Shown here: piece after piece, positions 8,841 through 41,367 of the stretch | Position numbering within the stretch: the stretch's first letter is position 1 | How the letters are laid out: every line of letters begins with the position of its first letter | Virus record (IMG/VR): IMGVR_UViG_3300033068_001325 | Length of the DNA stretch: 64,000 nucleotides | Strand: one strand, 5' to 3' | Source: an uncultured virus (IMG/VR IMGVR_UViG_3300033068_001325) | Taxonomy: Duplodnaviria; Heunggongvirae; Uroviricota; Caudoviricetes | The notes under the pieces: model-generated | Told to the model about the DNA's origin: nothing | Databases searched by the model: none | Seen by the model: only the letters and a program-made list of their open reading frames with translations | Translations under genes and position numbers: made by a program

Positions 8841-8870
8841 GACTCGCCACCTACCCCTAGCTGACGGTCG

Positions 8871-9610: not shown

Positions 9611-9627
9611 TTTCTTCCTCCGTTTGC

Positions 9628-10098: not shown

Positions 10099-10160
10099 TG
10101 CGATTCCCCTGTCGGTTGTCGAACCCATATCAGCAATCGATGCGTGACGCATCCTGATTT

Positions 10161-10733: not shown

Positions 10734-12587
10734 TCAAAATTCTTCGAGTGTGCAGGTTACACTCATGGGAGAAACAGAATTTCCAGACGAGGAAAGCATG
10801 GTTGCATCGAACCAGCGCGCTACTCCGATCGAAAGCCCGGTTACGATGCCTCCAATAGAGAAAGCGGTCTCGTAATTCGCTGCTGCGAGCGTAGCGCCTA
10901 CAATGCTTCCAAGGGCACTTCCTTGGTCGGCGGCCCCATTAACTGGAGCCGATCCGGTGTTGTGCTTTACCTGGGTTCGAGCGGTTGTGACAGCGGCGGC
11001 CAGCCAATAACCCGTGATGATGACGCGGACCCTACCGGAATACACTGGCGTAATCGTGCAAGCGTTTCCGATTCCCATCATGACGGCAGTGTTGCTGACC
11101 GTTCCGGTGGGGTTGGTCGGCGAAGTTTGGGTGACTGCGTTGGTCAGCGACTGCGAGATCGTGACGTTCGTCGTGCCGGACAGTGATATGCCGGCTCCGG
11201 CCGTCAACGACGATGCCTGATTTTGGCAGCCTAGCACGCTGGAATTGTTAAAGAGATATTGTCCGTTTGAACAGGTTCCTCCAATCGTTGTGGATCCCTG
11301 TGTGATGGAGCCGGCCGAGCTGCCCGCCTGCCAGGACGGTAGCCCCGTGTTAACCTGCAGCACCTGCCCGTTCATTCCGATTCCGAGCCGGGCGAGCTGA
11401 CCGCTGGAGTTTCGGTAGTAGAGATCGCCGGTCGCATCCGAGCCCAGCGTCATGGTGATGCCGCCGAGCACGTTGCTGGACGCTGTCAGCGTCTTGTTCG
11501 TCAGTGTATCCGTCGTGGCGCGGTAGACGAAGGTGTCCGTCGCAGCCTGAAGCGTGTTCGTCACGGACCCGAGCGCGCCGGCTGGCGGAGCCACCGTGAC
11601 GCCGCCCGACGTCGTGTTGGCGAAGGTCGCCGAGCCATTGATCGAGCCGGCCACGCCGAACGTCGTCGGCCGCGCCAGAACGATTCCACCGGTCGAGGAG
11701 CCGCCCAGCGTGACGGTGCCGCTGCCCTTGGCATCGATGCCGAGGTTTTCGTTAGTGCCGGAGGAGATCGCAGCGACGGCGACACCGGCACCGGCGGCGG
11801 CGCCGGTGACCTTGATGCCCGTGGCCTGCGATGCCGTGGCGCAGTCGACTTGGAAAGCCGGGCTCGTCGCGCCCTGGCGGCCGATCGCGGCGCAAGCCGA
11901 GTTCGTCGACGTGCCGGTCAGCGTCGCGGAATAGCCGAGCGTGGTGAAGCTGCCGGCGAGCGGACTCGTCGAGCCGATGATGACGTTATTGATCTGGTTT
12001 CCGCCGCCCGAGATCGTGCCGCCCAGCGTAAAGGCGGGTAGCGTGCCGATCGAGGCCGGCGAACCGAGCGCCAGCCCGTTGGGTAGCGTGGTCGAGATCG
12101 ACGGCGTGCCGCTGCCGTTGGTGACCAGCACGCCGTTGTTGACGGTGGCAAGGTTACCGAGGACACCGGCGTTGTTGTAGAGAAGTCCCTTGTCCGTACC
12201 GGACAGAACGGTAGTCGTGCCGACCGTCATCGAAACGGCTGTGGCTCCGATCAAGTCGTAGGTGGCACCGTTGATGCGCGCAAAAAGACTGCTCGATGTT
12301 GCCCACAAATCACCGTTAGCCGGCGAGCCCGGTGCCGTGCCGGGGATGAGATTGAAGCCGGCGGTCGATGCGCCAGGCGCGGCAGTGACGACACGTCCGG
12401 AGAACACGCCGCCAGCGGAATTCATCGGCACATAGCCGAGAGTGTCCTGCTTGCTGGCGAACAGATTGTTCCATTGCGCTGGCGTCAGCTTCTGACCTTG
12501 TGTCAGACCCGGATTCGTCTGCGCAATAGCGACAGATGACGACAGCGCAAACGCGAGCGCTATCGCGCCAACAATCTTTTTCGACAT
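10734..12587 (-). CDS. Tail-fibre-like protein with Sec signal peptide
   Basis: G/S/T-rich beta repeats (GDLYYRNSSGQLARLGIG..GQVLQV); located after the fibre and chaperone genes; MSKKIVGAIALAFALSSSVAIA/Q. Confidence 0.75.
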   Translation of the reverse strand: MSKKIVGAIALAFALSSSVAIAQTNPGLTQGQKLTPAQWNNLFASKQDTLGYVPMNSAGGVFSGRVVTAAPGASTAGFNLIPGTAPGSPANGDLWATSSSLFARINGATYDLIGATAVSMTVGTTTVLSGTDKGLLYNNAGVLGNLATVNNGVLVTNGSGTPSISTTLPNGLALGSPASIGTLPAFTLGGTISGGGNQINNVIIGSTSPLAGSFTTLGYSATLTGTSTNSACAAIGRQGATSPAFQVDCATASQATGIKVTGAAAGAGVAVAAISSGTNENLGIDAKGSGTVTLGGSSTGGIVLARPTTFGVAGSINGSATFANTTSGGVTVAPPAGALGSVTNTLQAATDTFVYRATTDTLTNKTLTASSNVLGGITMTLGSDATGDLYYRNSSGQLARLGIGMNGQVLQVNTGLPSWQAGSSAGSITQGSTTIGGTCSNGQYLFNNSSVLGCQNQASSLTAGAGISLSGTTNVTISQSLTNAVTQTSPTNPTGTVSNTAVMMGIGNACTITPVYSGRVRVIITGYWLAAAVTTARTQVKHNTGSAPVNGAADQGSALGSIVGATLAAANYETAFSIGGIVTGLSIGVARWFDATMLSSSGNSVSPMSVTCTLEEF

Positions 12588-12593
12588 GATGTT

Positions 12594-13250
12594 TTAGACT
12601 CCGCTGAAGTCAGGCTCTTTCCACTGACCGATAGTTTCGGTTGTGAGATCTTCGACATCAGACATGGCTTCCGCTGCCATGAATTCGATCTCTCTTGCAC
12701 GCCGGCGAGCTTCCTGCATTTCACCCAGGAACTTGGCGTCTTCTGCTGGGCGACTTTCGACAATGGCGGTTTGAATATCGACTTCGCCCTCACCAAACAT
12801 ACGCTTGAAAAATCCAGGCTTGGAACCTTGCGCCAGCGCCGCCCCTCTCGCTGCATCGGATTCCTGAATTTTTGTTTCCCGCAGAATCATGAAGCGCTGC
12901 TTGCCGGGAGGAATAATTGACGCAAGCGCCTCGCCTTCCAGCTTCAGGATGCGCGCGATCAGTTCGCGCTTTCGCGACTCTAGCATGTCGGCGCTATCGT
13001 CGATCACTTCATAATCGACTTCAAAATTTTCGTTGATCGCGGCCTCAATCTGATCCGACGCGCGGGGCCGATTGAAGGGTTGAAATCTGTCGACCGGAGC
13101 AATGACTTTGCCGGCAGCGATGTCGGCTTGTTGTTTTTGCAACGCGGCGTGATGGTCGCGCCAATGTCGAAGCGCGCCTGCATGCTCGGCCACGAGAAGA
13201 TCGAACGCGGCATTGGATTCGAGGACCGATTTTTTGATTTTTGCCGTCAT
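12594..13250 (-). CDS. Putative tail fibre assembly chaperone
   Basis: Helical protein directly after the tail fibre gene, ATGA overlap. Confidence 0.55.
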   Translation of the reverse strand: MTAKIKKSVLESNAAFDLLVAEHAGALRHWRDHHAALQKQQADIAAGKVIAPVDRFQPFNRPRASDQIEAAINENFEVDYEVIDDSADMLESRKRELIARILKLEGEALASIIPPGKQRFMILRETKIQESDAARGAALAQGSKPGFFKRMFGEGEVDIQTAIVESRPAEDAKFLGEMQEARRRAREIEFMAAEAMSDVEDLTTETIGQWKEPDFSGV

Positions 13251-14299
13251 AGTTTCTGCCCCCAATTTACGCCGAGACTGCGCTGCACGGTGTTATGGGC
13301 CGTGCCGGAGCCTGATGAAGCGTTGTTGATGCTTATGTCAGTAGTGCTGGAGACGATGTTGATGCTGGCATAGCTGATTGGGCTGTCCGATCCGCCTCCA
13401 GTGCCAGTCAAGGCGTGGTTGGAGCCGCCGATATTTCCGCCGGAAACCCCATGCACATGCCCCGGGTCGGTAAGAGAATTGGGGTGGATGTGGGGCCCGT
13501 TCTCGCTGCCGACGAGCGGATGCAGATTCTCGCCGAGCGTCGACCCCGGCGTGGTGGCATTGCCGGACGTGACCGGAACGCCGGACAAATTGCTCGAGCT
13601 TCCCGCGTCGACGCCGATCAGGCCGGTGCCGCGCCCCTCCGGGAGCTGCAGCCGCTTGCCGGCGACGAAGTCGGCCACTGCGTTCGCGCCGCGCGTCGTT
13701 GCAATGCCGCCGCTGGTATAGATCGCAAGCTGTGAATTCGGCCAGTTGGCGGCAAAAAGAAAGAGCGCGTCGGCATCCGCATAATTGGCGCCCGACGATC
13801 CATTTCCGAGAGTCCAATCCCCGCGCGCGTGAACGTATCCCGTCGGCACCGCTGACAGAAATGGCACCAGGGTTCCGGCTGGAATACCCACTCTAGTCCA
13901 ACCGCTCGATGTCAGAGGATCATCAGGATCTGTCGCATTGTTGTCGACGGTGGAGTACCACTGAGCGCCGAGCACAATATCCGAAGCGACGATAGCCCCT
14001 TCAGGATATCCCCCGACTTCGCCGGCGAAAGTCGCATCGAACGGGATTACGCCGCCTGCCTGAAGCCATTGCTCCCATGCAGTGACGACCTTCAATATTC
14101 CGTTGAAGTCCTGCCCGAACGGCGGAACGCCCCCGGCCGACACTGGCGTAAAGTTGTCAGGCACAAAGCCCGTATCGAACGAAGCTGCGCCATCCTGGAT
14201 TCCAATCTGGGAATCAACCGGCACCGTGCGGATATACGCGCCGGCGGCATTGACGCCCCAGATTTTGGAAAAGCGAAGCGGAATGTCTGCGCGCTGCAT
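13247..14299 (-). CDS. Baseplate-attached tail fibre with collar domain
   Basis: GAASFDTGF...GGVPPFGQDFNGIL...GGYPEGA N-terminus; collar PAGTLVPF...LPEGRG; DPGHVH...GSGTAHNTVQ tip. Confidence 0.85.
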   Translation of the reverse strand: MQRADIPLRFSKIWGVNAAGAYIRTVPVDSQIGIQDGAASFDTGFVPDNFTPVSAGGVPPFGQDFNGILKVVTAWEQWLQAGGVIPFDATFAGEVGGYPEGAIVASDIVLGAQWYSTVDNNATDPDDPLTSSGWTRVGIPAGTLVPFLSAVPTGYVHARGDWTLGNGSSGANYADADALFLFAANWPNSQLAIYTSGGIATTRGANAVADFVAGKRLQLPEGRGTGLIGVDAGSSSNLSGVPVTSGNATTPGSTLGENLHPLVGSENGPHIHPNSLTDPGHVHGVSGGNIGGSNHALTGTGGGSDSPISYASINIVSSTTDISINNASSGSGTAHNTVQRSLGVNWGQKL

Positions 14300-22008: not shown

Positions 22009-23745
22009 TCAGATCAGGACGATCGACGCCATTTCGAACTGCTGCACCGACTGGCCGTCGACATAGTAGAACGTCATGGGAGGCGAGCCGCGCGCAGCGC
22101 GCACTTCCGGCGCCGCAACGCCGATGTCCAGATACCAGCCCTGATTTGTCAGGGTGCTCGCAACATCCTTGTCCGCGCTGTCGTTGACGGCCGCCTTCTG
22201 CGATCCTGACAGCGCCACCCCGGCGCGGTAGGCGCCGAAATTGAGATACTGCTCGATCGTGTCGGCGAGCGCTGCCTCGATCAATGCCCGGCCCGCCGCA
22301 TTGTATGGGATCGAGTAGGCGTTCTGCAGAAGGTTCGCCAAATCGCGGGTAAATGCACTGTTGAGAGCGATCTGGTTGACATAGCTATCAGCCCACAAGA
22401 AATCCCCGGAGATCGAGCCATCGGTGTACCAGCGCCATTCTTCATCTCCATCGGCCGAGACTTCATAGAAATTGTAGCCGTTGGCCAGAAGATTGTCGTG
22501 CACTGTGTCGTCGCTTACGCCCACGGCCATTCCGGACTGTGATCGGAAGGCGAGCGTCACACGACCGTTGGTCTGTCGAAAGTCGATCGACGCGATGGCT
22601 CCGCATACAAAAGCACAAAGGTTGGCAAAATCCAGCGCGTCATCCGGCTCCGGCTGCCAGTTGCAGATCGTTCCGGAAATGCTGGCGTCCTGGATGAGTC
22701 GCGATAGACAGCTCGTTGCATCAGCGCTGGCCGTCGGCGCCGCGTCACTGTCGATCGCAACATAGACGAAGCGGTTGCTCTGCGTCGCATTCCATGTTGC
22801 GAAAGCGAGACGTTCGCTGTTTTCGTCGACGGCATCAGGATTGAAGGTCAGCATGAAGCTGGCGAATGCCCTGGTCACCTGCACCAAGGCATTCATAAAC
22901 GCCGCCGGCGTCGTCACGGCGGCAGCTCCCTGAGACAAAACCGCTCCAGTTGCCAACGTCATCTTCAGGCTCGCCGCGATGGTGCCGGTGGCGAACGCCG
23001 CGGTAGAGCTCGCGCCCACCGTCGGCGAAATGACTTTGAAAGCTCCGGCCACGCTGTCGTAGCTCACGCCAGCGAGCGTCGAAGTCATCGCCTCACTGCC
23101 GACGGTTTGCGACGCGCTCACCTGATACGTGCCAGCACCGCCCGGCGTGCCCGTGAGCTGCGACTTGATGTAGGTGCCTGCCGTCACTCCAGATCCAGCG
23201 ACTTTCCCGCCGATGTCAATTTCGCCGGTGACGCTGGAGGCGGTGAGCGTGGTCCCGGAAATGGCGCCGGTAAAGGATGCCGAGTTGGGCCCGTACACAT
23301 CCAGCGCAGCGCCGATGATTTGCGCAGCATTGGAGAAAGACGTGGCACCGGAAAGGTTCGGGTTTCCGCTCTTGGTGATGCCATCCAGGACGATCGAAAG
23401 AGATCCGGAAATCGCCTGCAACTGCACCAGCGTCAACGCCGAGACATCGCCGCCAAGCAGATACGCGCCGACATCCTCCGTGTTGTACTGAGCGAAGAGA
23501 ATCTTACCGGGCTTCCTGTTGGAGTTGTCGAAGCCGGCAAAATACTTCGCGGCTGCGCGCGCTTCGATCGTGTCGTCGCCGAAATAGTTTGAGACCGCAA
23601 GAGCGCTCCCGAGGGTGAGCACCGTTCCGATCGGCACGCGCCAATTGGTGGTCAGCAGCAGGCCGGCAAGCACAAGATCGCTGCCGCCGGCGGCCAGCAC
23701 CGACGGAGTAATGCGGACAACTTTGGTGATGGAGACGGTGCTCAT
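22009..23745 (-). CDS. Tail sheath protein (DUF3383-like)
   Basis: VRITPSVLAAGG...YFAGFDNS...ISGDFLWADSYVNQI...IPYN..G...ARGSPPMTFYY.DG. Confidence 0.9.
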   Translation of the reverse strand: MSTVSITKVVRITPSVLAAGGSDLVLAGLLLTTNWRVPIGTVLTLGSALAVSNYFGDDTIEARAAAKYFAGFDNSNRKPGKILFAQYNTEDVGAYLLGGDVSALTLVQLQAISGSLSIVLDGITKSGNPNLSGATSFSNAAQIIGAALDVYGPNSASFTGAISGTTLTASSVTGEIDIGGKVAGSGVTAGTYIKSQLTGTPGGAGTYQVSASQTVGSEAMTSTLAGVSYDSVAGAFKVISPTVGASSTAAFATGTIAASLKMTLATGAVLSQGAAAVTTPAAFMNALVQVTRAFASFMLTFNPDAVDENSERLAFATWNATQSNRFVYVAIDSDAAPTASADATSCLSRLIQDASISGTICNWQPEPDDALDFANLCAFVCGAIASIDFRQTNGRVTLAFRSQSGMAVGVSDDTVHDNLLANGYNFYEVSADGDEEWRWYTDGSISGDFLWADSYVNQIALNSAFTRDLANLLQNAYSIPYNAAGRALIEAALADTIEQYLNFGAYRAGVALSGSQKAAVNDSADKDVASTLTNQGWYLDIGVAAPEVRAARGSPPMTFYYVDGQSVQQFEMASIVLI

Positions 23746-23768: not shown

Positions 23769-24350
23769 TTAACCGGTGGCGCTGGCCGTACTGTTGGGCC
23801 AGCTAGCGGGGTTGGTCTCGACGTCGACAATGCCGACAGCAAGCGTTCGCGCAGATTCGGTGACGCGAGTCAGCGTGAAATTGACCTGTAAATTCGCCTC
23901 GACAATCCATCGATCCTCATACTGCTTTTCGCCGCTGACGAATTGTGCCTGGCGTGGATCGTCGGCAAACAGCGGCGCGATGTCATCGTAGCTTTCAAAA
24001 AATTCGACCGCGTAGCTGTCACGGAACATGGTCGAGATCCGCGCCGAATTGTTGAAAGACTCTGGCCCGTGAACGTCGAGCTGGATGACGACTTGGGCGG
24101 ACTGCCTTGTCTTCGCCTCGGCACCGAGGGCCTGGAGCTCGTTGAAATTGGTCGACAGACGCGGCATGCGAAGCGGAGTCATCACGACGTAATTGGTCTC
24201 GCTCGGCTCCGATACCCGATTTTCCTGGCCGACGACAACAACGTGCCCGACGAAAGGAGATGCAGTTTGTGGAGGAAGAACGTCCTGCAGAAAAGCCCGA
24301 AGCGCCTCGAATACGTCGTCTTCCGTTGGCTCTTGGATAAACGTCGTCAT
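23769..24350 (-). CDS. Neck / tail terminator protein
   Basis: GQENRV.EP...IQLDVHG...PLFADDP.Q..F..GEKQYEDRW. Confidence 0.78.
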   Translation of the reverse strand: MTTFIQEPTEDDVFEALRAFLQDVLPPQTASPFVGHVVVVGQENRVSEPSETNYVVMTPLRMPRLSTNFNELQALGAEAKTRQSAQVVIQLDVHGPESFNNSARISTMFRDSYAVEFFESYDDIAPLFADDPRQAQFVSGEKQYEDRWIVEANLQVNFTLTRVTESARTLAVGIVDVETNPASWPNSTASATG

Positions 24351-27300
24351 GCCGCCTTCTCCAACCACATCGGATCGTTATCGTTCGAGGCCGGATCCAT
24401 ATCCCGCTTCAACAGAAAATTGAACATGCCCGTAAAGACGCCACGTCCGCTTGATCCATAAACCTGTCCATAAACGAAGGGATCACCCTCAATATCGTTG
24501 AAGCCGAGCGCTGAATAGGATGGCCATGTCGGCATCTTCGTCCAGGTGTTTCCTCCAGTGCAGGATGCCGATGCTCCAGAATTTCCGTGGTTCGCATCGT
24601 CGGTTGACTTCCATAGCCCGTAGTCCCCGTTGTACCAGCCAAGAACATAAATCGTGGGATAAGAGTTCCCCGGCTTCGCTCGGCCAAACCCGAACCCAGT
24701 CGGTTCGGAAAACCCACTGACCTGCTGCCATGTCACGGCGCTATTGCTATCGCCATTGCACGCGCGCCAAAGACCACTTGCTGCCGGATGATCGGCGTTG
24801 AGTGTTGGATTGTTGGCCGAAGCCCCTACAGGGCCAGAAGTGTAGAACAGATGCCCGCTTTCTCCTGGCACTGTTTTGATTTTCGAGTTGAACCCCCCGT
24901 TGGACTGCCACGATCCAGTCGCCGCAACTTGAACTAGCGTTCCTGATGGACTCCCGCAACCTGTCCACTTGTAGAGGCCAGTCGGGTAGTTGACGGCGAA
25001 GAACGTATTCGGCTGGACATAATCGGCAGCCACTTGTCGGGTGGCTAGGTAGGCTGCGAAGCCCCAGCCGGTTGCAGTCCAAAGGGCCGCACCGTTCGGA
25101 ATGCTGCGCCCTGTCGGGACCGCAAGGCTCAGAGTGACGTTCGGTGAACTGACCGAGGCGAGCGTATTCACATAGTCTCGACCGTCGTCCATCGGAATGT
25201 GGACGACGCTTCCGGCGGAAAGTCCCGACGTGCTGGCAAGCTGAATTACCGTGGTGCCCGCCGAGTACGGGCCACCGACCACGGTAGTTTGCGCTGGTGG
25301 TATGGCGGATGGGTAAGTCATCTGCGTCCACGACTGCCCGCCGTCCGTCGTGCAGATAGGGTACGAGCTGTTGCCCGCCACCATCGCGATATTGGTGCGA
25401 CTCGCCGCGGCGATGTAGCCTCCCGGCTCGCGCCACTTCGCGCCAATTCCGCCTCCGGTATAGGCGTTCGAGAAGGTGGAGCTTGGCCCGAGCGTGACCG
25501 CTCCAGACGCCCCCGATCCTGCAACGCTCTCAGCAATCCAGCACCCGTTTGCCTCAGTGGTGCCCAGCACACTTGAGAAGCAGACCGGCTCTCCGTTCGC
25601 GAGCAGCCCGAAGTTCCGATACATGTATGAGACGCGGATTTTTCCGCCGCTGTTGGCGGTATCAATCACGTTGAGCGTTCCGCCCCACGACGACATCTGC
25701 GTCGGTGCCGGAGACCACATGATGTAGCTGCCGCCCGTCGTGCTCATGCCGGCGCTATAGGTTGCGCCGACGAGATCGAACTGCGTGGGACTTATCTTGT
25801 TGACGGTGTAGCAGGCACCGCCGCCGATTAAATTGCTAGACGGCGTTACTGTCGAGATCGAGCAGACGATTGAGCCTGTGCCCGCACTCCACGTCGTCAG
25901 GCTGGCGGCGTCAGGTGTCGTCACGCGAACAACGCCAGATCCATTGTTCGAAATGCTGGTAGCCGGAACTTGCGAACCCCAAGTCCCGAAAGGCATGAAA
26001 GTCGCAAATCTATCAGTCGAGTAGCCGGACCAATCTAGTGTTCCGTTGAAATTATCGCTGATCTTGGCGACCAGAAACCCGCCATCGTTCGGCGGATTTG
26101 CGACACCGGAACCAAAGGTCAGCGTCCTCGCGGCGAGCCCTGGATAGACCGTACTCAGATTGCGGTTGTCCATCGTGTTGTAGGCGAACAGGCCGTTGTC
26201 CTGCTGCCCGATGACGGGCTTGTTGGCCTCCGGAACAGCGATGTTCCAGCCGATGCTTCCTTCTGTCCCGTCAGAAATCGATGTCCACACAAAACTGCTG
26301 GTAGGGAACGTCGTCGAATAGACCGCCTGTCCTCCCCCGAAAATCAGAAGGTCGTTGTTGAGCGGGTCAAACTCGACGGCCCCTGCAGTCATGTAGGCTT
26401 CATTGGCGAGAGCCGTCCACGGCGCATCGCCGGCTGCTCGCGTGAATGCAAGCTCTGCGGTGAACGAACTGCCACCATCCGATGACGAGCGAATGGCGCC
26501 GTTATTGCCGAGCACGACGACATGGTTCGTGTTGGCCGGATTGATCGCCACCCAATGGCAGCAATTTCCGCTGCCGGACAGCTTACTTGTCCAGGAACCC
26601 GCTGCCCCACCGCTATAAGTCCAGACCGTACCGCTCGCCGATGGCGTTCCCGATACGATCCAAACGACACCACTCGTAGGGTGAACCATCAACGCTTGCG
26701 CGGTAGTCGGTCCTCCAGCGGGAGCCGCCGCATATGTCGCTCCGGCATCTACAGAAACGTAAAGCCCGCCAGCGCCGTTGTTCGTGAAGATGTAAATCTT
26801 ATTCGTACAAACAGCGCTTCCACAAACCGACGTCCCCGAAGCGGGATCGAATGCGATGTTGTAGCCGTTGGTCGCAAGCGGAATGCTGCCGGTCGAGATT
26901 TGCGTCCAGGTGGTCGCGGCACCAGCTCGACCGTTCTTCGTTTCCCAGATTCCGTCCCCGTAGGTTCCTACGATGACGTGATCCGGGTTATTCGGGTCAA
27001 CCGCCATGCGGCGGCCACCGAGGCGACGCGGCTGATCATTCGAGTTGTCGTTGACGCTCTGCGGCCAACCAGAACCGCTCTCGCTCGCCTTCACCCATCG
27101 GATGCTGCTCGGCGTCGTTGTGTCGATCGTCGTCGAGACATAGACGAAGTTGCCATAGTTCATGTAGGCAACAGTCGCCGCCGATGGTGCCCCGGCTATT
27201 TCAAGGACGCCGTTACTGGAAGGACTCTGGAATTTTTGCGAGGTTCCTGTTGTTGGCTGAACGCCGTAGTTTGCTGCTGGCATCGTCGTCGAGTTGATGA

Positions 27301-27565
27301 CGTCGTACCAGCATCCGGTTACGGCCTGGGGGCCGCAGTTGGCCAGGTTGGCGGTCCAGATATATCCGCCGAAAACGTCGGCGCGGAGAAAGCGAACGCC
27401 CGTCGTCGAGAGATCGGTTCCAACGATCAGACCGCCGCCGCCCGTTTTGAGCGGGATGAATGTATTGGTAACCGGCGGGGATATTACATTGACCGCATGT
27501 TGCGACCATGAACAAAAAAATATTGCTATCGCGCAGAGTAGCGAAGCCCGAAAAAGTTTTTTCAT
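24347..27565 (-). CDS. Signal-peptide-bearing GH74/BNR beta-propeller protein (putative depolymerase or receptor-binding appendage)
   Basis: GGGG...RADVFGGYIW, MAVDPNNP, Asp-boxes SVDAGATY, SSDGGSSF, TTDGGQSW; MKKLFRASLLCAIAIFFCSWS N-terminus; ATGA overlaps. Confidence 0.8.
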   Translation of the reverse strand: MKKLFRASLLCAIAIFFCSWSQHAVNVISPPVTNTFIPLKTGGGGLIVGTDLSTTGVRFLRADVFGGYIWTANLANCGPQAVTGCWYDVINSTTMPAANYGVQPTTGTSQKFQSPSSNGVLEIAGAPSAATVAYMNYGNFVYVSTTIDTTTPSSIRWVKASESGSGWPQSVNDNSNDQPRRLGGRRMAVDPNNPDHVIVGTYGDGIWETKNGRAGAATTWTQISTGSIPLATNGYNIAFDPASGTSVCGSAVCTNKIYIFTNNGAGGLYVSVDAGATYAAAPAGGPTTAQALMVHPTSGVVWIVSGTPSASGTVWTYSGGAAGSWTSKLSGSGNCCHWVAINPANTNHVVVLGNNGAIRSSSDGGSSFTAELAFTRAAGDAPWTALANEAYMTAGAVEFDPLNNDLLIFGGGQAVYSTTFPTSSFVWTSISDGTEGSIGWNIAVPEANKPVIGQQDNGLFAYNTMDNRNLSTVYPGLAARTLTFGSGVANPPNDGGFLVAKISDNFNGTLDWSGYSTDRFATFMPFGTWGSQVPATSISNNGSGVVRVTTPDAASLTTWSAGTGSIVCSISTVTPSSNLIGGGACYTVNKISPTQFDLVGATYSAGMSTTGGSYIMWSPAPTQMSSWGGTLNVIDTANSGGKIRVSYMYRNFGLLANGEPVCFSSVLGTTEANGCWIAESVAGSGASGAVTLGPSSTFSNAYTGGGIGAKWREPGGYIAAASRTNIAMVAGNSSYPICTTDGGQSWTQMTYPSAIPPAQTTVVGGPYSAGTTVIQLASTSGLSAGSVVHIPMDDGRDYVNTLASVSSPNVTLSLAVPTGRSIPNGAALWTATGWGFAAYLATRQVAADYVQPNTFFAVNYPTGLYKWTGCGSPSGTLVQVAATGSWQSNGGFNSKIKTVPGESGHLFYTSGPVGASANNPTLNADHPAASGLWRACNGDSNSAVTWQQVSGFSEPTGFGFGRAKPGNSYPTIYVLGWYNGDYGLWKSTDDANHGNSGASASCTGGNTWTKMPTWPSYSALGFNDIEGDPFVYGQVYGSSGRGVFTGMFNFLLKRDMDPASNDNDPMWLEKAA

Positions 27566-28995
27566 CCCCCGATAAACCTCACACCCGAGCCATGCTGCCT
27601 CTGAGTCGATCCTGCATCCAAATAACTCGTAGCCGATCCAACCGGACCCGGACATCCTGCATTAGCTGCCGGCGAATTAGAGGGAATGGAAAAATCTCCG
27701 CTGCCAGGGTTCCCCAAAAGTGGGTTTGTCGTCAGTTCCGAACTATTGAGCGTAAAATTGACGACGTTGGTCCCCGCAGATGCGTAAAACACATTGCATC
27801 CATGATTTGTCGTCGTGACATCCGATCCCGATGGTAGCGAGACGTTCGCGCCAGAACCATTATTTTGAAAAATGCTGTTCCACAGGCTTGAATTTACTTG
27901 AGCTCCGGCAACTACTTCAAGCCCTACGCTGTTGTTGTAGACGGTGCTACCCGTGATGGTGAACGCGATGGTGGAGGTGCTCGATCCTGATGAGTGATAA
28001 ATCCCTCGCCCCGTGTTGTTCGCGATCGTACTGTTGAGGATGGTAGTGCTGGAGTTGGCGAACGACATTTCCACGCCGTCACCGCCGCAGCCATGCAGGT
28101 AGCTGGCAACAAGTAGAAGGCCACCAAATGTTCCGTTGCGTACGCAATCTCCGCCGACTCCGACAACCTCGCTGTTAAGTATCTGCGCCGTCGCCGCTAG
28201 CTGGATTCCGTCTCCCGTTCCGCCACCGCTAGGGTGATTCACCTTTACATTGCTAATCTGGCTCCAGTTATTGAATGCCGTCATGAGCGCGCCACTCGAT
28301 CCGGATTGGCGCAATTCCAGATTGCTTATGACGTAGTAACTGACGCCGCTCGCATTGATGACATTCACATTGTTCGCACCGACATCGAGAAGGATGCGGG
28401 GGCCGCCCGGTTTTCCGATAATGCGTATCGGCCCGGTGGTCAGGTCTCCGCTTACGATCCCGGTCCAGAAAGCCGCCGTTCGCGCTGCTGGATCGTTGTT
28501 GAATTGGACGGTATCCCCCGGACGAACGGAGCCTAAGATAACGATGGCTCCCGAACCTGACGGGTAGAGATAGCGCCCACCTATTGCCCAACTCGATCCC
28601 GAGCAACTAGAGCACGTCGGCGCAGCGGGGGCTCCGCTTGTGGTGACCGAGCAGGAGCCCGATCCGGTGCAACCGGTTACTCCCGTAATCCAGAAAATTT
28701 TGTTTTGACCGGAGTTGTTCGTCGCATTGTTGAGATAGATTGCTTGATCACCAGCTACCGAGAGTCCTGTGAGATTGGTGTTGGTGTCGAGCGTTATCGT
28801 ATTTGTCCCGGTAGTCCACGCAGCCGCCGCCCCAGAATATGGGGCCGTGTTGGCATCAGTAGTTCCCGAGTTGGTGGCTGACCCTCCGGTGTCGACATAG
28901 ATCGTTCCGGATGCAGCATAGGAAATCTTGGGCGTAAAAACGCACAGCAAGACGAGGGCGGCGATCAGGCGCCGGACCACAAACTTCTTCATCAT
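27562..28995 (-). CDS. Signal-peptide-bearing right-handed beta-helix (pectin-lyase-like) protein
   Basis: IYVDTGGSATNSG; repeats ILNSTIANNTGRGI, ITGSTVYNN; NPLLGNPGSGDFSI..NSPA..AG; MMKKFVVRRLIAALVLLCVFTPKISYA/A. Confidence 0.8.
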   Translation of the reverse strand: MMKKFVVRRLIAALVLLCVFTPKISYAASGTIYVDTGGSATNSGTTDANTAPYSGAAAAWTTGTNTITLDTNTNLTGLSVAGDQAIYLNNATNNSGQNKIFWITGVTGCTGSGSCSVTTSGAPAAPTCSSCSGSSWAIGGRYLYPSGSGAIVILGSVRPGDTVQFNNDPAARTAAFWTGIVSGDLTTGPIRIIGKPGGPRILLDVGANNVNVINASGVSYYVISNLELRQSGSSGALMTAFNNWSQISNVKVNHPSGGGTGDGIQLAATAQILNSEVVGVGGDCVRNGTFGGLLLVASYLHGCGGDGVEMSFANSSTTILNSTIANNTGRGIYHSSGSSTSTIAFTITGSTVYNNSVGLEVVAGAQVNSSLWNSIFQNNGSGANVSLPSGSDVTTTNHGCNVFYASAGTNVVNFTLNSSELTTNPLLGNPGSGDFSIPSNSPAANAGCPGPVGSATSYLDAGSTQRQHGSGVRFIGG

Positions 28996-29009
28996 GCGAG
29001 CCCCTTCCC

Positions 29010-30464
29010 TTAACCAGAATACCCAGAGGCCGTACAAATTACGCTAGCCCCCGTCGTGACATTTTGTGCGTAGAGACCGTTTCCAGAGGTTGTCCAGAAG
29101 AGGGGAGTTGATCCTGTTCCTTGCTCACCACCGCCGTTAGCTGACACCGAGAGCGTGTCGAGAACCGTTCCTCCACTTCCATCCTGTATCTGAACCTTCG
29201 TCCCAACCCCGTTAGATGGGTCTCCCTTGCAAGCCACTCGCGTTATATAGAGGCGGTTAGATGCAACCGCGGCCACTACCTGCGTGCTTGTTGTGCCCGT
29301 CATCGCTGCCGTGGTCCCTTTTACAAAGGGAGCCCCGAGCGCAAGTGTCCCGGGGAAGCCAGATACCATGGTTCCGGGCCTCTGATCGACGACGAGAGCC
29401 GTATCGGTCGCAGCAGCCGGCGTGCTGGCTGCCTTCACCGTCGATCCGTTAGTGCCGTCGGTCAGGCGACTAAAAATTGGATTTGAGATCGAGAGTAGCG
29501 ACGCTCCCTGCTGCAGTTTCACATTCCCGATCCATGTATCGGAAACCTGCGCCGGCAAAGGATTCAAGGATGAATTCGCTTGAGCCTTTATGACTGCAAG
29601 CATAGAGCACGAGGCCGTTGATGTTGGAAGCGAACATGGGGAATCCGTCGGCGTTCCAAGTGCGGAATTTGCGGTCGCTTGGTTCGCCGATGTCGCCGCT
29701 CCGGTCGGAAGAACTGACGTCTTGACGTTCACCCACGCGCCGTTCGTCGAGTCGCCGCGCAGGCGATCGAACGTCGTCCCATTGTAGACCATCGGGAAAG
29801 ACTGGCCCTGGACAAGACCAGCCGTCGGCGGTGTGAACGTATCGGCTAGCGCAGCGCTCGTTACGCGCGCAGCCGCCATATTCGTTCCATCAGAGAAGCC
29901 GGCAGCCGTCCCGGTCGCAGGGAAGGCAGATCCAAAACTGCTCGACGTTCCTCCACCGCCGCCAGCAGAGCTCCCGCCGCCAGCGCCGGTGCCGAGGCCA
30001 GATCCACCGACCATATTGGCCGTCGTGGATCCTCCCGTGGCGATACAGTGCAGCGTCGTCACACCGCTCGGGATCGTGAATTCAAACCAGCTCTGCGGCG
30101 CAATCAGCTTGTCGGCCACGGTCGCAGCAACGCCATTGACGTTGCAGTACATCGGATTTGAGCCGACGTTGCTGACGTCGACCACCGCACCAGTCGGCAG
30201 CGTGCCCGAGCTGTCGCTGGTCGTAACTGTCAGCGGCGTGCCGCGCGCGCCCGCGGCGCTGGGGAGAAAACCGGTAAGGCTTCCAGAGATCGGAAGCGGC
30301 GCAACACCGGAACAGGGTACAGCCTGGTTGCTGCCGTTCTGGCACATGAGCTGGACGCCAACGACATTCTTGCCGGCAGTCGGCGTCTTGAATTCGTTTT
30401 GCGCCGATGCGGGCGCAGCGGCGAACAGTGCCGCGGCCAGCGCGGCAAGACGAAGAAGCTTCAT
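29010..30464 (-). CDS. Signal-peptide-bearing fibre-like protein
   Basis: MKLLRLAALAAALFAAAPASA/QN; YNGTTFDRLRG, LPTGAATSANQ, VKAASTPAAATDTALVV fibre-type motifs. Confidence 0.78.
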   Translation of the reverse strand: MKLLRLAALAAALFAAAPASAQNEFKTPTAGKNVVGVQLMCQNGSNQAVPCSGVAPLPISGSLTGFLPSAAGARGTPLTVTTSDSSGTLPTGAVVDVSNVGSNPMYCNVNGVAATVADKLIAPQSWFEFTIPSGVTTLHCIATGGSTTANMVGGSGLGTGAGGGSSAGGGGGTSSSFGSAFPATGTAAGFSDGTNMAAARVTSAALADTFTPPTAGLVQGQSFPMVYNGTTFDRLRGDSTNGAWVNVKTSVLPTGAATSANQATANSALGTPTDSPCSLPTSTASCSMLAVIKAQANSSLNPLPAQVSDTWIGNVKLQQGASLLSISNPIFSRLTDGTNGSTVKAASTPAAATDTALVVDQRPGTMVSGFPGTLALGAPFVKGTTAAMTGTTSTQVVAAVASNRLYITRVACKGDPSNGVGTKVQIQDGSGGTVLDTLSVSANGGGEQGTGSTPLFWTTSGNGLYAQNVTTGASVICTASGYSG

Positions 30465-30472
30465 GAAACCCC

Positions 30473-30886
30473 CTACGGGAAAGGTGAAGTGGGAGACAGG
30501 TTGTCGGTTTGCAGGGTGATGGCGAACGTGCACCAGTTGGGCCACCGCTCGAGCACATGCGTGCATAGCCAGGTCGTTCCGTCCGGCAATGCTCCCGACG
30601 GGAAGACAAGCAGATCGCCGCCGAACTTGTCGACGCGGATCTGCGCGAAGACTTGAGGATCGCAGTAGACCTTGCGATGGACGCCCTGAATATTGAGGCT
30701 GTCCATTTGCTTCAGGTCGTCGTCAGTCATCGCCTGCAGCTGAATCTTGATCGTGCTTTTGGTGTAGCTCGGCGTGCGCTTTCCGCTCGCCGCAGTCGTC
30801 GGGCCAGTGTTGTGCCAGAGCTGCGCATAGATGTTCGGATTGATCGCTGATGTCGCGAAGTTTGCGATCGCGCGCAGGTTCACCAT
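30473..30886 (-). CDS. Head closure / head-tail joining protein
   Basis: NLRAIAN....INP...G.RTPSY...QLQAM...GGDLL.F...WL...VLE.WP.W. Confidence 0.78.
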   Translation of the reverse strand: MVNLRAIANFATSAINPNIYAQLWHNTGPTTAASGKRTPSYTKSTIKIQLQAMTDDDLKQMDSLNIQGVHRKVYCDPQVFAQIRVDKFGGDLLVFPSGALPDGTTWLCTHVLERWPNWCTFAITLQTDNLSPTSPFP

Positions 30887-31311
30887 CCGCGGAATCTCCG
30901 GCCTTCGGTCTTGCGGCGCTCACGCGCGGTACGGGCGGAAAGTTTTGGCGTAAGGATTTTCATGCTGTCGACAGCGCCGTCCTTGGTGCCGTCGATCAGG
31001 ATGAGCTGCGCATTGTGCTGGAATATTCCCTTGGCCAGGTTCAAATCCAGCTGCGGCTCTTTCGGATCAAGATAGGGCTTCAGCTGCTCGCCACGTTCGG
31101 CGCGCGCCAGGTTTTCCGCCTCTATCTTGTCGTTGAATTCAATGATCTGGGAAACGATGGAATAGGCCAGCGTCGGCAGCGCCGCGTAGCATATTGCCCT
31201 TCGCGTGAGTGGGCCGAGATCTTCAAGAGCCGCCAGCTCGAGCTCTGTGAGAACAGCGCCGCGATGGGACGCCGGCGCTGCAATTCCGTTGCTTCCTCTT
31301 CTGACCAACAT
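30880..31311 (-). CDS. Hypothetical protein
   Basis: GAGGAGG RBS; in operon. Confidence 0.55.
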   Translation of the reverse strand: MLVRRGSNGIAAPASHRGAVLTELELAALEDLGPLTRRAICYAALPTLAYSIVSQIIEFNDKIEAENLARAERGEQLKPYLDPKEPQLDLNLAKGIFQHNAQLILIDGTKDGAVDSMKILTPKLSARTARERRKTEGRRFRGW

Positions 31312-31370
31312 CGCCATCCTCCTCGCGAGGCCCGTTTTCTTACACGAGCTCTCGCGAGAAGGCGATGCTC

Positions 31371-32531
31371 TTATGAGATGCGATAGAGGGTCCACGCACC
31401 GGTTCCGGTCTTCCTCGCCCGGAAGCGACCAGACACGTTCTGCGCGATCGTCAGCACGCCGACCGTGGTCCAGCTGTTGGGCACCACGGTGATGGTATTG
31501 GCGCCGCCCGACGTGTTGATGATCGAGAAATCGAACGAGTCGTTGTTGGCCGCATCCGGAATGGCAGTGTCCATGGCCGACTGAAGCGGCAGCGTCAAAT
31601 TGATCGCACCGCTGGGAGTGGACTGGATAATTCCAGCGAGCAGCTGGGCTGCGGACAGCGTAGCGGCCGTGTCCTGGGTGGCCTGCGCCCCCTGCGCGCG
31701 CAAACCGACGCCGAGCTGGCGAACCGAACCCGCTACGCCAGAACCATTCGGGGCACCGCCCTGGATGATGACGGAGCCGCCATTGGCGTTTCCGCCAGAT
31801 CCAGCGCCGCCGGTGAGGCTTGCAACTCCACCGGTACCGCTCGTGGCGCCACCAGCACCGCCGACCAGACCGACAGCGCCGCCGGCCCCCGTGGCACCGC
31901 CGACCCCACCGGTGACTTGGGCAGCTCCGCCGGCCGCGGAACCTTGACCAGCACCACCGGTTACGGCCGCGGCACCACCGGCCGCGTTGCCCGCAGTACC
32001 GGCACCGCCGACGAGCGATGCGGCGCCACCAGCTCCGGATGTCGATCCACCAGCGCCGCCGGTCACGCTCGCGGCACCGCCGATCCCGGTCGCGCCAGGC
32101 ACGCCGCCAAGCAGGGAAGCCGCACCACCAGCATTAGCCGACGTCGACGACGTGCCGCCCTTCGCCTGAATGGAGCCGCCCTGCGCGGCCGCAAGGCCTT
32201 GGAAGAGGCATGGCGTTGCGGTGCACCCGCTGCCTTGGGTGTTGACGGAAGTGAACGTGCCGGCGCGCGGCGTCGTCGCGCCGATGATCATGTTGTCGAT
32301 CGAGCCCGCCGCACCAGTCGCGCGATTGGGCGGAAGAAACGGAAACGGGATCTGCCCGTTACGATCGGTCAGGAAAATGGTGTTCGCGGGCTGCGAGCGC
32401 GCCGGCAACATGAGGACAGCCAGCACCGCCGCGATCAGCAGCACCGCCAGCACAATATCGAAAATCCGATGACGCAAGAACGTGCCCGGGTGAAGTCGGG
32501 GAACGTCCATCTTGTTGAATGACGAAAACAT
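31371..32531 (-). CDS. Gly-rich repeat fibre/decoration protein with N-terminal hydrophobic signal
   Basis: About 8 repeats of GGAxx(L/V)xGGxG; C-terminal TLSAAQLLAGII...SFDFSIIN...RFRARKTG..AWTLYR domain; IVLAVLLIAAVLAVLMLPARS/Q. Confidence 0.75.
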   Translation of the reverse strand: MFSSFNKMDVPRLHPGTFLRHRIFDIVLAVLLIAAVLAVLMLPARSQPANTIFLTDRNGQIPFPFLPPNRATGAAGSIDNMIIGATTPRAGTFTSVNTQGSGCTATPCLFQGLAAAQGGSIQAKGGTSSTSANAGGAASLLGGVPGATGIGGAASVTGGAGGSTSGAGGAASLVGGAGTAGNAAGGAAAVTGGAGQGSAAGGAAQVTGGVGGATGAGGAVGLVGGAGGATSGTGGVASLTGGAGSGGNANGGSVIIQGGAPNGSGVAGSVRQLGVGLRAQGAQATQDTAATLSAAQLLAGIIQSTPSGAINLTLPLQSAMDTAIPDAANNDSFDFSIINTSGGANTITVVPNSWTTVGVLTIAQNVSGRFRARKTGTGAWTLYRIS

Positions 32532-32547: not shown

Positions 32548-33078
32548 CTACGGTTTGGGTGGTTTGGCGGCTTTGGCGATCGACGCATATTTGGCTGCGC
32601 CGGCAGTGGAAGGTGACGTGGTGATTGCGCCAACGGTGCCGTAGCGCACTTCCCAGGCGATGGCGTTTATCGTGTCCCCGTGCTCTATCAGAGGTTTGTC
32701 GAAACCCTTCTTCGCGATCGTCGACGCCGCAAGCGGCGGTGACCACAGATCAAGATAGGATTCTTTCAGCTGGCCCTTGATGGCCTCGCCTGTGCGTTCG
32801 AGCGTCAGCCGCAAATCGTAGTTTGTCGCCTTCAGCTGGTAGGCGATTCCTTGCGGCCACTCGCCGGCCTTTGCCGCGATCATGTTCCGAAAAGCCGGCC
32901 GCGGCGGCATCTTATCAGTACCGAATTCAAGCCGGAACGCGCGCAGCGCCAGGGAATCGCCGTTCGGCGCCGTCGCTCCCTCCAGAAACCCGACCCGAAG
33001 CGTCCCGGGTTCCTTCAGCTTGGCCGCCATCTGGGCGAGCGCCTGGTGCAGCTTCTTGCCGCCCTTGATCTCGGCCAT
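32548..33078 (-). CDS. Neck / tail completion protein
   Basis: LRVGFLEGAT...EFGT...PPRPAFR...PPLAASTIAKKGFDKPLIE. Confidence 0.82.
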   Translation of the reverse strand: MAEIKGGKKLHQALAQMAAKLKEPGTLRVGFLEGATAPNGDSLALRAFRLEFGTDKMPPRPAFRNMIAAKAGEWPQGIAYQLKATNYDLRLTLERTGEAIKGQLKESYLDLWSPPLAASTIAKKGFDKPLIEHGDTINAIAWEVRYGTVGAITTSPSTAGAAKYASIAKAAKPPKP

Positions 33079-33190
33079 ATGTGATCCCCGGTCACAAACA
33101 AACCCGGAACTCTCGATTTGTTCCGCTTCAGAAGCCAGGTGGCAGCCAAATGGCGGGTGCATAGCCCGCCAAATGGCTGTTTCCCGGGCT

Positions 33191-33652
33191 TTATGAGGCT
33201 GCCTGTGAGTTTTCCTCGGCCGGCGCACCCTTCGGCGGCACCGCCGTGGGGTCGATATCCACGCCGTCGCTAGCGTTCGGGTCTTCACCGGGAGCGTCCG
33301 GCTTTTCGGTGGAACCGTCGACCGTGTCCCCCAGCGACAGCAGCACCTGCAGGGCCTCCCGGTTCCCGGCCAGCCAGTCGAGCAGGTCGACCACACTCGG
33401 GTCGGCCAGGCGCTCGATCGCCGCCAGCTGCTCGGGCTTCAACTTGGGCAGCTCGTCGAAAGAGATCTGCACCCGGGCAACCGACTCGCCGAGATCGTCG
33501 ACGCGCTTGCGCAAGTCATCGAGCGACGTAGTGTCCATATTGTCGAAGGCGTTGAGCGCCGACTCGAGTCGGGCGAGCAATCCGCCGTCGAATAGCCGCT
33601 CGAGGCGTACCTTGAACGCATCGAGCAATTTCAATCTGGCATCCAAATCCAT
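33191..33652 (-). CDS. Hypothetical acidic coiled-coil protein
   Basis: AGGAGG RBS; in operon. Confidence 0.62.
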   Translation of the reverse strand: MDLDARLKLLDAFKVRLERLFDGGLLARLESALNAFDNMDTTSLDDLRKRVDDLGESVARVQISFDELPKLKPEQLAAIERLADPSVVDLLDWLAGNREALQVLLSLGDTVDGSTEKPDAPGEDPNASDGVDIDPTAVPPKGAPAEENSQAAS

Positions 33653-39853: not shown

Positions 39854-40223
39854 CTTCGATACCTCCGAAGGCGCCCGGCGCATACGGCCAGTCGGGCAGC
39901 TCGACAGTCTGTCCATTCAGCTTGTGCGGGTTGTCACCGCAAAACTGAATTTTCCCGTCGGTGATGAAGTAGTGGCAAAGCGTGCGGCGCTGCCCCGCCG
40001 GCAGTGGCTCACCCTCGTCATCGTGAATGGTGAAGTTGAGCACCGACGGCTTGAAGGTCGGCCGATCGAAATCGCCGTTGAAATCCCATTTCGGCGGGCC
40101 GCCTTCGATCACGACGCCGTGCGGCTCTTCACAGCCAGGGCACCAGTGCATCAGCCGCACAGTTTTGCGGCCGTCCTGCAGTGTGCCGACCGCTCTGCGA
40201 AGCTTCTTGCCAACCGCTCCCAT
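39837..40223 (-). CDS. DUF6527-like zinc-binding protein
   Basis: WCPGCEEPH...WDFNGDFDRPTFKPSVL...CHYFITDGKIQFCGD..H. Confidence 0.78.
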   Translation of the reverse strand: MGAVGKKLRRAVGTLQDGRKTVRLMHWCPGCEEPHGVVIEGGPPKWDFNGDFDRPTFKPSVLNFTIHDDEGEPLPAGQRRTLCHYFITDGKIQFCGDNPHKLNGQTVELPDWPYAPGAFGGIEDADQE

Positions 40224-40447: not shown

Positions 40448-40900
40448 TTATTCGATTGTCATGTTCTCCGGCTCGAGCTCGAGCTCGTCGACCATGATGA
40501 CAAATTCCTCGGTGCGGCCAAGCTTCTTGCCGATCGCACGCATTGCCGTATTCTTGATGTGCGTCGCGCTCTCGATCGTGCGGCATTTGCGCTGCTGCGC
40601 GATCGTGCGGACGGCATTGTACATCAGCTTGTAGACGCCGCGGCCGCGGTACTCCTCCACGACATACGACAGCTGCAACCACATGCGCCCGATCGGCGCA
40701 TCGTGCGCGAAGGAGATCATGCCGGCGGGCACAAATTCGCGCCCCTGCTCGACCGCGACCAGCACGCATTCCCATGACGCCGAAATTTCGGCGCGCGAGT
40801 CCGCGAAACCCTTGGAGATCAGTTCCGCTTGCGCTCGTACTGCCAGGATCGATGCATCCGGAAATAGCCCGAGTGACCCTACCAAAACCCGAGCTCTCAT
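40448..40900 (-). CDS. GNAT acetyltransferase
   Basis: YVVEEYRGRGVYKLM acetyl-CoA motif A; NTAMR. Confidence 0.85.
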   Translation of the reverse strand: MRARVLVGSLGLFPDASILAVRAQAELISKGFADSRAEISASWECVLVAVEQGREFVPAGMISFAHDAPIGRMWLQLSYVVEEYRGRGVYKLMYNAVRTIAQQRKCRTIESATHIKNTAMRAIGKKLGRTEEFVIMVDELELEPENMTIE

Positions 40901-41367
40901 TCGAGCATCCCCGGGCACGGCAGCGACAAGCGCCGGAGATATTGCTTCTCCGTCTCCCACGGCACCGGCGCCTTCTCGCACTCCTTCAGCAGCTTCCGGT
41001 GACGCCGCTCCTGCGCCGGCGTGTTCTTCGGCAGCTTGTCGGCGCCGATCACGGGAAGGTCGGCCGCCATCTGCTGGCGCGTGAGATCGTTTGGCTCGAA
41101 TTGAGATCTGGTAACGCTCTCAAAAATTTCCTGCACGCGAGCTGGTTGTGTGCCGCCGTAGGCCATTGGATGACAATTGTCGTTGATCCAATCGGGAGAC
41201 GCGATCGTATAGACCTTGGCGTCGCCCTCCATCGTCATGGTCGTTATAGCGGTAAAGTCAGGCCCTGCGCCCAAGTCAACGGCCACTACCGGCGCCGCGC
41301 TTGCAACACCCGCTACGCCGGCAATCGCGCCGGCAGCCGCTGCGAAAAATCCTCGTCTCGAAAGCAT
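40897..41367 (-). CDS. Protein with twin-arginine (Tat) signal
   Basis: MLSRRGFFAAAAGAIAGVAGVASA; GAGG RBS. Confidence 0.65.
   Translation of the reverse strand: MLSRRGFFAAAAGAIAGVAGVASAAPVVAVDLGAGPDFTAITTMTMEGDAKVYTIASPDWINDNCHPMAYGGTQPARVQEIFESVTRSQFEPNDLTRQQMAADLPVIGADKLPKNTPAQERRHRKLLKECEKAPVPWETEKQYLRRLSLPCPGMLE

Follow-up and report, generated by a model that had tools for sequence, protein, structure and literature searches.

Predicted Sec export and oxidative folding of five fibre-like and glycanase-like proteins encoded in the structural operon of an uncultured myovirus

In the textbook view, tailed phages assemble wholly in the cytoplasm, and their fibres and depolymerases are cytoplasmic products. 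The late operon in a 64,000-nucleotide stretch of DNA from an uncultured virus (IMG/VR record IMGVR_UViG_3300033068_001325; hereafter the window) raises the question of why five of its genes, here called A to E, begin with what look like Sec-type leaders and encode proteins with closely spaced cysteines. An original prediction, made from this DNA alone, proposed that the products are exported, oxidatively folded appendages that attach to phage particles at or after lysis or, alternatively, late secreted enzymes that remodel polysaccharide. Here, we find that Sec export and oxidative folding of A–E are very probable, and we lean towards a reading in which all five are Sec-exported, glycan-directed proteins, with A–C ending as free periplasmic proteins and the fate of D and E unsettled.

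All five genes lie on the minus strand. A (29010..30464; 484 amino acids, aa), B (27562..28995; 477 aa) and C (24347..27565; 1072 aa) are consecutive, D (31371..32531; 386 aa) lies upstream of them and E (10734..12587; 617 aa) far downstream. We called a leader where a positively charged n-region precedes an uncharged hydrophobic core of about 8–15 residues and small residues at −3 and −1, a crude rule that we combined with comparison to relatives. By this rule the basic-hydrophobic pattern described in the original prediction is present in all five proteins: each has a basic n-region, an uncharged hydrophobic core and a small-x-small site, the last being clear in A, B and E. Cleavage is predicted between PASA and QNE in A (residues 1–21; 21 codons, 30402..30464), between ISYA and ASG in B (residues 1–27; 27 codons, 28915..28995), and between VAIA and QTN in E (residues 1–22; 22 codons, 12522..12587). 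The leader of C spans about 21 codons (27503..27565) and ends in CSWS before QH, a less clear site. D is atypical, in that its N-terminal 46 codons (32394..32531) comprise a 25-residue n-region, a 20-residue hydrophobic core and a site at PARS before QPA, and this segment is possibly either a cleavable leader or a signal anchor. Applied to 31 late proteins of the window, the rule flagged six, namely A–E and the sheath, the latter an evident false positive.

Leaders of this kind could be an annotation artefact, in which the true starts lie downstream or the hydrophobic segments are cytoplasmic oligomerisation helices, leaving A–E as ordinary cytoplasmic virion parts. High G+C DNA does give long spurious 5' extensions, and the rule flags the sheath as well. 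However, the leader-bearing starts are accompanied by a ribosome-binding site (RBS) or by ATGA coupling and directly follow the upstream stop. The ATG of A (30464) lies 8 nucleotides past the stop of the preceding head gene with GGGGG ahead of it, that of B (28995) lies 14 nucleotides past A with AGGGAAGGGG ahead, and that of C (27565) overlaps the stop of B as ATGA; D starts at an ATG at 32531 preceded by AGGAG, and E at an ATG at 12587. The ATG of the neck terminator overlaps the stop of C in turn, again as ATGA. The five starts named in the original prediction are real and well supported.

Relatives also speak against an artefact, as hundreds of them keep the n-region, the hydrophobic core and the AXA site while the sequence drifts. 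Protein A has 238 relatives in a large protein collection, none with a Pfam family, and among the best 120 of these a leader is present in 111; the other nine begin inside the conserved domain and are therefore cut sequences. The N-terminal domain (N-domain) of E has 116 relatives, 101 of them with a leader, and the B family has 25 members, 17 with a leader and eight without. C belongs to a family of 1277 relatives, and most of the 50 that we inspected have a leader right before the GGGG at which the fold starts. In seven of eight viral loci that encode an A relative, the leader can be read from the DNA, and neighbouring genes are leader-bearing too: three are consecutive in L008 (including a C-like protein of 868 aa), three in L003 and two in L007, L numbers here denoting loci of related phages and prophages. 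Conservation of the leader columns is lower than that of the next 60 mature columns (0.46 versus 0.74 for E; 0.46 versus 0.54 for A), and when the profiles of the two families, A and E, are compared, they align over the leader only. Whether homologues keep the leaders was one of the checks proposed in the original prediction, and most members of the A, E and B families do; together with RBS placement, this conservation led us to reject the downstream starts, which it had listed among the findings that would refute it.

The cysteines point the same way. Mature A, B, C, D and E contain 8, 8, 14, 2 and 6 cysteines, all even numbers, and close pairs occur in A (C41/C51 and C277/C286), B (C109/C115), C (C77/C85 and C248/C253), E (C439/C454) and D (C103/C108, in GCTATPC). 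Every pair quoted in the original prediction was found in A, B, C and E; its count of four proteins out of five was one short, as D carries a pair as well. Even counts of mature cysteines also prevail among the leader-bearing relatives, at 104 of 111 for A, 96 of 101 for E and 15 of 17 for B.

Within the B family, leader and cysteines are present or absent together. The eight leaderless members begin with Met followed by the mature sequence GTIYVDTGG, so that their start coincides with the predicted mature end, and they average 3.9 cysteines, compared with 8.1 in the leader-bearing members (Mann-Whitney p=0.003). The cluster CTGSGSC...TC..SC is found in none of the eight, while it is full in 11 of the 17 leader-bearing members and partial in five more. 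For one leaderless member, P0137, the DNA shows a stop codon directly 5' of the ATG; used as a query, this protein matched only its own contig, where the neighbours are replication genes. In the E set, the weaker leaderless matches are ordinary fibres with 0–3 cysteines, and one close leaderless relative has none. Rare leaderless members with the E N-domain (L147, 6989-8986; P0226) open with the mature motif and contain 1 and 0 cysteines, mirroring the leaderless members of the B family.

Kept leaders, even cysteine counts and leaderless B relatives devoid of the cysteine cluster strongly support the first step of the original prediction, and we regard export of A–E by Sec with oxidative folding as very probable. 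The annotation artefact, against which the same observations stand, has in our view hardly any chance of being right.

A–C lie between genes for virion parts, as the original prediction had stated: upstream is a head protein (phrog_1912, 30473..30886, minus strand) and downstream the neck terminator (PF23961, 23769..24350, minus strand), followed by the sheath (22009..23745, minus strand). In phage phiE131 and in L012, L014, L015 and L016, Neck1, the head gene and the neck terminator abut, and neither L097/98 nor L099, with its 81% identical major capsid protein, carries A–C; the three genes are therefore a 7.9 kb lineage-specific insertion. D, which follows the Neck1 or tail completion protein (32548..33396, minus strand; phrog_222 on residues 104–254, with the true start probably internal to the called open reading frame, ORF), is likewise an insertion into the phiE131-like backbone, present in some relatives. 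At the distal end of the operon, the single 678 aa fibre of phiE131 is replaced in the window by three genes, fiberN, g12594 and E.

Promoter-like sites (3, versus 3.2 in shuffled sequences) and terminator-like sites (8 versus 11.4) showed no excess. Translational coupling to the head-completion gene and the neck terminator argues that A–C are made late and in structural amounts. We considered a classical moron, and A–C are indeed inserted, but the candidate was rejected, as there is no promoter or terminator of their own, with no excess of sites, gaps of 8 and 14 nucleotides and two ATGA overlaps. The tight coupling and the lack of a site excess argue against morons and lysogenic conversion and for a role late in infection.

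What might the inserted proteins do? A consists of the leader, a Cys loop, a conserved jelly-roll N-domain (about residues 60–160), a Gly-rich disordered linker and a C-terminal jelly-roll (380–484), and the AlphaFold2 (AF2) model likewise has two confident jelly-roll domains with a disordered Gly-rich stretch between them. On this model A would be a fibre with two jelly-roll domains. Its fold matches are generic, namely phage cement proteins, Ena pili, TNF-like lectins and uncharacterised viral proteins, so that no function can be named for it. Pfam and PHROGs gave no family for A, D, E or g12594, and a protein atlas returned unnamed viral clusters only. The N-domain of A is present in phages with other terminase, portal and capsid families, with no further match to a window protein within 8 kb, and its occurrence on unrelated backbones makes a partner in the host more likely than one in the virion.

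B is confidently modelled (AF2; predicted local distance difference test, pLDDT, 85.9; predicted template modelling score, pTM, 0.84) as a right-handed beta-helix. Foldseek matched this model to the pectate lyase Pel9A (E=6.5e-5), a PL6 alginate lyase and a Klebsiella K1 capsule-specific lyase, with template modelling scores (TM-scores) of 0.4–0.5, and Pfam Beta_helix reached 24.6 bits, below its cut-off of 25.9. The modelled B thus resembles polysaccharide lyases. No particle-binding domain was found ahead of its helix, since the mature chain opens with GTIYVDTGG, with which the leaderless relatives also begin. A search for B in viral contigs returned the same phage only.

C aligns with structures of glycoside hydrolase family 74 (GH74) from residue 34, the mature N-terminus, through both propeller halves (phmmer against PDB). 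The best match was 6p2m_A (E=1.7e-16; query residues 119–556 and 865–1047), with further matches to 6p2l_A, 4lgn_A, 6p2o_A and 5jwz_A, and an insert of about 280 aa separates the two halves. Asp63 aligns with the Asp of RTDIGGAYRW and Asp456 with that of GDQGVF in 6p2m, and the two residues are kept in 138 and 144 of 150 representatives of the C family. We take D63 and D456 to be the GH74 catalytic pair. That assignment was not found in PMC9103125. Pfam gave Sortilin-Vps10 at 19.3 bits, below the threshold of 33. By sequence comparison, C is a GH74-like glycosidase of the beta-1,4-glucanase type with a predicted double beta-propeller. The bacterial secreted GH74 endo-xyloglucanases represented by 6p2m, 6p2l, 4lgn, 6p2o and 5jwz share with C both propeller halves, the two Asp residues and a signal peptide, but C differs from them in its low identity, its insert, an SsrA-like tail and its setting in a phage late operon.

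The tail in question, the last 14 codons of C (24350..24391, minus strand), has the form ...NDN...KAA, reminiscent of the SsrA tag of alphaproteobacteria, and ends in PASNDNDPMWLEKAA. A similar ...NDN...AA tail occurs in 16 of 81 long representatives of the C family. The transfer-messenger RNA (tmRNA) tag of Bradyrhizobium lablabi predicted by ARAGORN, ANDNFAPVAQAA, starts with ANDN and ends in AA like the tail of C, which may mimic the SsrA degradation tag of the host. We speculate that such a tail could mark non-exported, cytoplasmic copies of C for ClpXP. Parts of A and C also meet outside the window: L004, L005 and L006 carry, at about 7962-9805, an ORF of 187 aa with an A-like leader and N-domain, then a 599 aa ORF in another frame whose end matches the C-terminal 150 aa of C at 38%. 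These two ORFs are either a frameshifted or recoded fusion of an A N-domain with a C C-terminal domain or a sequencing error in three contigs.

B and C have no docking part, the A N-domain occurs on unrelated backbones, and the backbone works without A–C, so that a free fate fits A–C better than attachment to the virion. The alternative of late secreted enzymes offered by the original prediction suits B and C well; for D and E, which are fibre-like, the evidence is balanced: both show the slots and the modular evolution typical of virion fibres, and may or may not reach the particle.

D carries a fibre motif, Gly-rich repeats and a conserved C-terminal domain after its hydrophobic core. The Gly-rich and C-terminal module has 43 viral relatives, of which only three (L094, L099 and L112) have a leader. 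A D-like gene stands directly after Neck1 in five related phages (L094, L095, L097/98, L099 and L112); in L095 and L097/98 it encodes a leaderless N-terminal domain of about 60–90 aa on the same Gly-rich and C-terminal module. Alignment shows an N-terminal swap among these genes, with short classical leaders at the aligned place in L094 and L099. E is composed of a conserved N-domain (23–130), fibre repeats and a variable C-terminus. The fibre motif and repeats of D and E are common to many ordinary phage fibres, and the repeat of E is shared by 67 viral loci. D appears to be the exported form of a fibre module from the neck locus, and E that of a module of tail fibres.

E comes after the baseplate genes, fiberN (13247..14299, minus strand; 350 aa) and g12594 (12594..13265, minus strand; 223 aa, acidic), and before the endolysin gene. 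fiberN and g12594 both lack a leader and cysteines. Residues 1–137 of fiberN match phrog_12796 and other tail-fibre families, and its N-terminus matches the phiE131 fibre, so that fiberN looks like a baseplate-attached fibre stub; a baseplate-binding N-terminal domain was not found on E and is on fiberN instead. Between the window and L021, fiberN is 66% identical except in its C-terminal third, which has many His-x-His motifs and is not the same in the two. This third matched no Pfam family, and a tail-collar domain, considered for it, had no support there even at E=1. In close relatives g12594 always lies between fiberN and E, and the order fiberN, g12594, E, with a leader on E, is kept in L021, L030, L137 (a prophage of Bradyrhizobium sp. 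LjRoot220) and others. Sixteen genome loci, most of them from Hyphomicrobiales, encode the E N-domain, with a leader in 12 and the fiberN N-domain just upstream in nine. Altogether, at least 11 related phages or prophages have E in the distal-fibre slot, preceded by a stub without cysteines. A complex prediction with three copies each of fiberN 140–350 and E 23–140, made without controls, scored 0.00 and counts neither way.

These slots suggest a second explanation, two-compartment virion assembly, in which E, and perhaps D and A, would be exported, disulfide-bonded and then docked on particles that had formed in the cytoplasm. The docking site would be the Cys-free fiberN stub for E, with g12594 as a possible go-between, and the neck for D; docking would take place in the interval between the opening of the inner membrane by the holin and the rupture of the outer membrane by the spanins, or at lysis. 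Because holins make very large lesions and the outer membrane holds until spanin action, particles could encounter periplasmic proteins within a space that is still closed. The position of E next to the lysis genes, its fibre repeats, conserved N-domain and variable C-terminus all suit such a route, as do the retained fiberN, g12594, E order, the contrast between six cysteines in E and none in fiberN or g12594, the leaderless and leader-bearing forms of the D module right after Neck1, and translational coupling to structural genes. We found no published precedent for it in the literature searched, however, and fiberN, with a variable C-terminal part of its own, may already be a complete receptor-binding fibre. 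Backbone relatives lack A–D, the host partner favoured for the A N-domain speaks against docking of A, and neither B nor C has a docking domain before the enzyme fold. We hold this explanation to be possible but rather unlikely, and judge with the same reserve the wider proposal of a two-compartment assembly line for Caudoviricetes that would be widespread in soil Hyphomicrobiales phages.

A third explanation is envelope display with superinfection exclusion, in which the N-domains of A and E would anchor their fibres to the host envelope. An infected or lysogenic cell would then be coated or have its receptors masked, blocking other phages, or would stick to its neighbours. The layout of A and E, with a signal peptide, a conserved beta-rich N-domain of about 100–130 aa and a variable fibre, is that of the MAT (mosaic adhesive trimer) fibres of Bdellovibrio bacteriovorus (Caulton et al. 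2024, PMC10769870). The likeness drawn here is one of layout, and the MATs are chromosomal and displayed by a predatory bacterium on its own surface, whereas A and E lie inside a phage structural operon and are translationally coupled. PF13884, the S74 chaperone-protease domain that also occurs in part of the MATs, is found in three members of the E family; A, D and E of the window gave no S74 match. Display would also be in keeping with an N-domain conserved over unrelated phage backbones of one host group, and phage envelope proteins with signal peptides are known, lambda Lom among them (PMC12309495). Against display stand the missing promoter and terminator and the coupling to late structural genes, the lack of an integrase in the 64 kb window, the lack of an evident route across the outer membrane, and the size of C (1072 aa), which is unlike known exclusion proteins. 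We therefore consider envelope display improbable.

Under the reading that we prefer, A–E would be made as Sec precursors, signal peptidase I would remove their leaders, with D possibly staying membrane-anchored, and the proteins would fold in the periplasm with all cysteines paired. A–C would accumulate there as soluble, disulfide-stabilised proteins and act on envelope or extracellular polysaccharide of the host, either from the periplasm or once released at lysis. Such action would open the way for progeny phages or remove receptors from cell debris. D and E would be exported forms of modules that are fused elsewhere to cytoplasmic N-terminal domains, and could end free, on the envelope or on the particle.

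Several observations weigh against this preferred reading. Export is read from sequence, with the leaders called by a crude rule. All five genes lie inside the structural operon and are coupled to it, which sits uneasily with a purely free fate; E takes the distal-fibre slot behind fiberN in L021, L030 and nine of the 16 genome loci, and at the locus of D, related phages encode leaderless versions that have the same C-terminal module. Some seemingly leaderless C relatives are rich in cysteines, although at least one of them has a cluster member that is 24 residues longer, so that its start call is doubtful, and an E relative in a Labrys prophage (L140) has a leader yet no cysteine. Cysteine parity is partly inherited, and because relatives are not independent, binomial p-values for it are too optimistic; counts in the variable C-terminal parts range from 2 to 21, so that inheritance alone does not suffice. 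In a diderm host, Sec delivers to the periplasm only, and action on an extracellular polymer would therefore need lysis or a further secretion step.

Late, exported phage products are not without parallel. Toxins encoded by lambdoid prophages are late products that leave the cytoplasm through Sec and are set free when the cell lyses. Signal peptides or signal anchors are described for the endolysin Lys44 of fOg44 and for SAR endolysins (Fernandes and Sao-Jose 2018, PMC6116005); lambda Lom reaches the envelope through its signal peptide (PMC12309495), and PBSX XepA is another exported phage protein, going by the title of PDB 6i56. A–E resemble these in being late products that would use host Sec and reach the periplasm or wall before lysis. 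The precedents, however, are lysis proteins, small envelope proteins and toxins, not large fibre, receptor-binding or depolymerase modules, and they do not form variable families hundreds strong within structural operons.

Phage depolymerases are the closest functional comparison for B and C: B shares the beta-helix of tailspikes and capsule depolymerases, and C is a predicted glycosidase. The known enzymes (PMC6116005) are cytoplasmic and either carry an N-terminal particle-binding part or are released as surplus, and halos caused by free enzyme are a known effect of theirs. B and C differ from them in having Sec leaders, a catalytic fold that begins at the mature start, and an even number of cysteines that we expect to be paired. 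Among phages, the myoviruses of the phiE131/PE067 type (DUF3383 sheath) have the same gene order as the window, but their fibre is leaderless and nothing lies between Neck1, the head gene and the neck terminator. We found no description of Sec-signal fibres or depolymerases in tailed-phage structural operons in the literature searched, which left most subscription journals outside.

Families this large (238 relatives for A, 116 for the E N-domain and 1277 for C, with leaders in most of the C relatives inspected) would break the rule of cytoplasmic assembly. If the proteins are free enzymes, soil phages would release stable, disulfide-bonded glycanases, one of GH74 type, with each burst, and this would bear on how viral "carbohydrate genes" in soil metagenomes are read. 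If instead some of them join particles, that would be a new assembly route, and because oxidative folding would be needed, the prediction, expression and engineering of receptor-binding proteins would change. Related prophages are present in cultured strains of Bradyrhizobium, Rhizobium and Labrys.

The genes discussed here belong to one late operon of a contractile-tailed phage, which runs on the minus strand of the window from about 50.5 kb down to 9.2 kb. Its order is large terminase, portal fusion, head morphogenesis, protease, major head proteins, head-completion and neck genes, then sheath (DUF3383), tube, tape measure, baseplate, fibre, endolysin and lysis genes. The nearest cultured relatives are Burkholderia phages of the phiE131/PE067 type, with about 49% identity in the sheath; phiE131-type phages share order and 30–57% protein identity with the window from the portal through the fibre N-terminus. 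The window is thus the late operon of an uncultured myovirus with a phiE131-like backbone, and its host is probably a Bradyrhizobium-type member of Hyphomicrobiales. Neither an integrase nor a tRNA gene was seen within the 64 kb. A viral collection contains two fragments identical to the window, one of which (G001) begins at 30827 and leaves A–C outside, and megablast of 16 kb of the window against a phage collection gave no match.

Several other genes of the window deserve mention. Two further ORFs begin with a leader and have no family match: one of 111 aa (7433-7768, plus strand) with an RBS and a clear leader, and one of 156 aa (40897-41367, minus strand) with a strong RBS and a leader of twin-arginine type (MLSRRGFF...), located between the protease and head-morphogenesis genes. 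An ORF of 138 aa (9194-9610, minus strand; RBS GGAGGAAG) has a lipoprotein-like leader ending in ...LLMSGC; it follows the endolysin (10161-10721) and an ORF for a membrane protein (9628-10152) and probably encodes a component of the spanin. A 773 aa ORF (37595-39916, minus strand) combines a NUDIX hydrolase-like N-terminal part (residues 64–201) with a head maturation protease (279–771). A 1506 aa ORF (44346-48866, minus strand) fuses a portal (147–710) to a long C-terminal part, residues 1289–1499 of which match minor head or virion structural families. Several genes of homing-endonuclease, HNH or endonuclease VII type occur at 42129-42683 (minus strand), 189-938, 1671-2264 and 56585-57172 (all plus strand), and one of them lies inside the head module.

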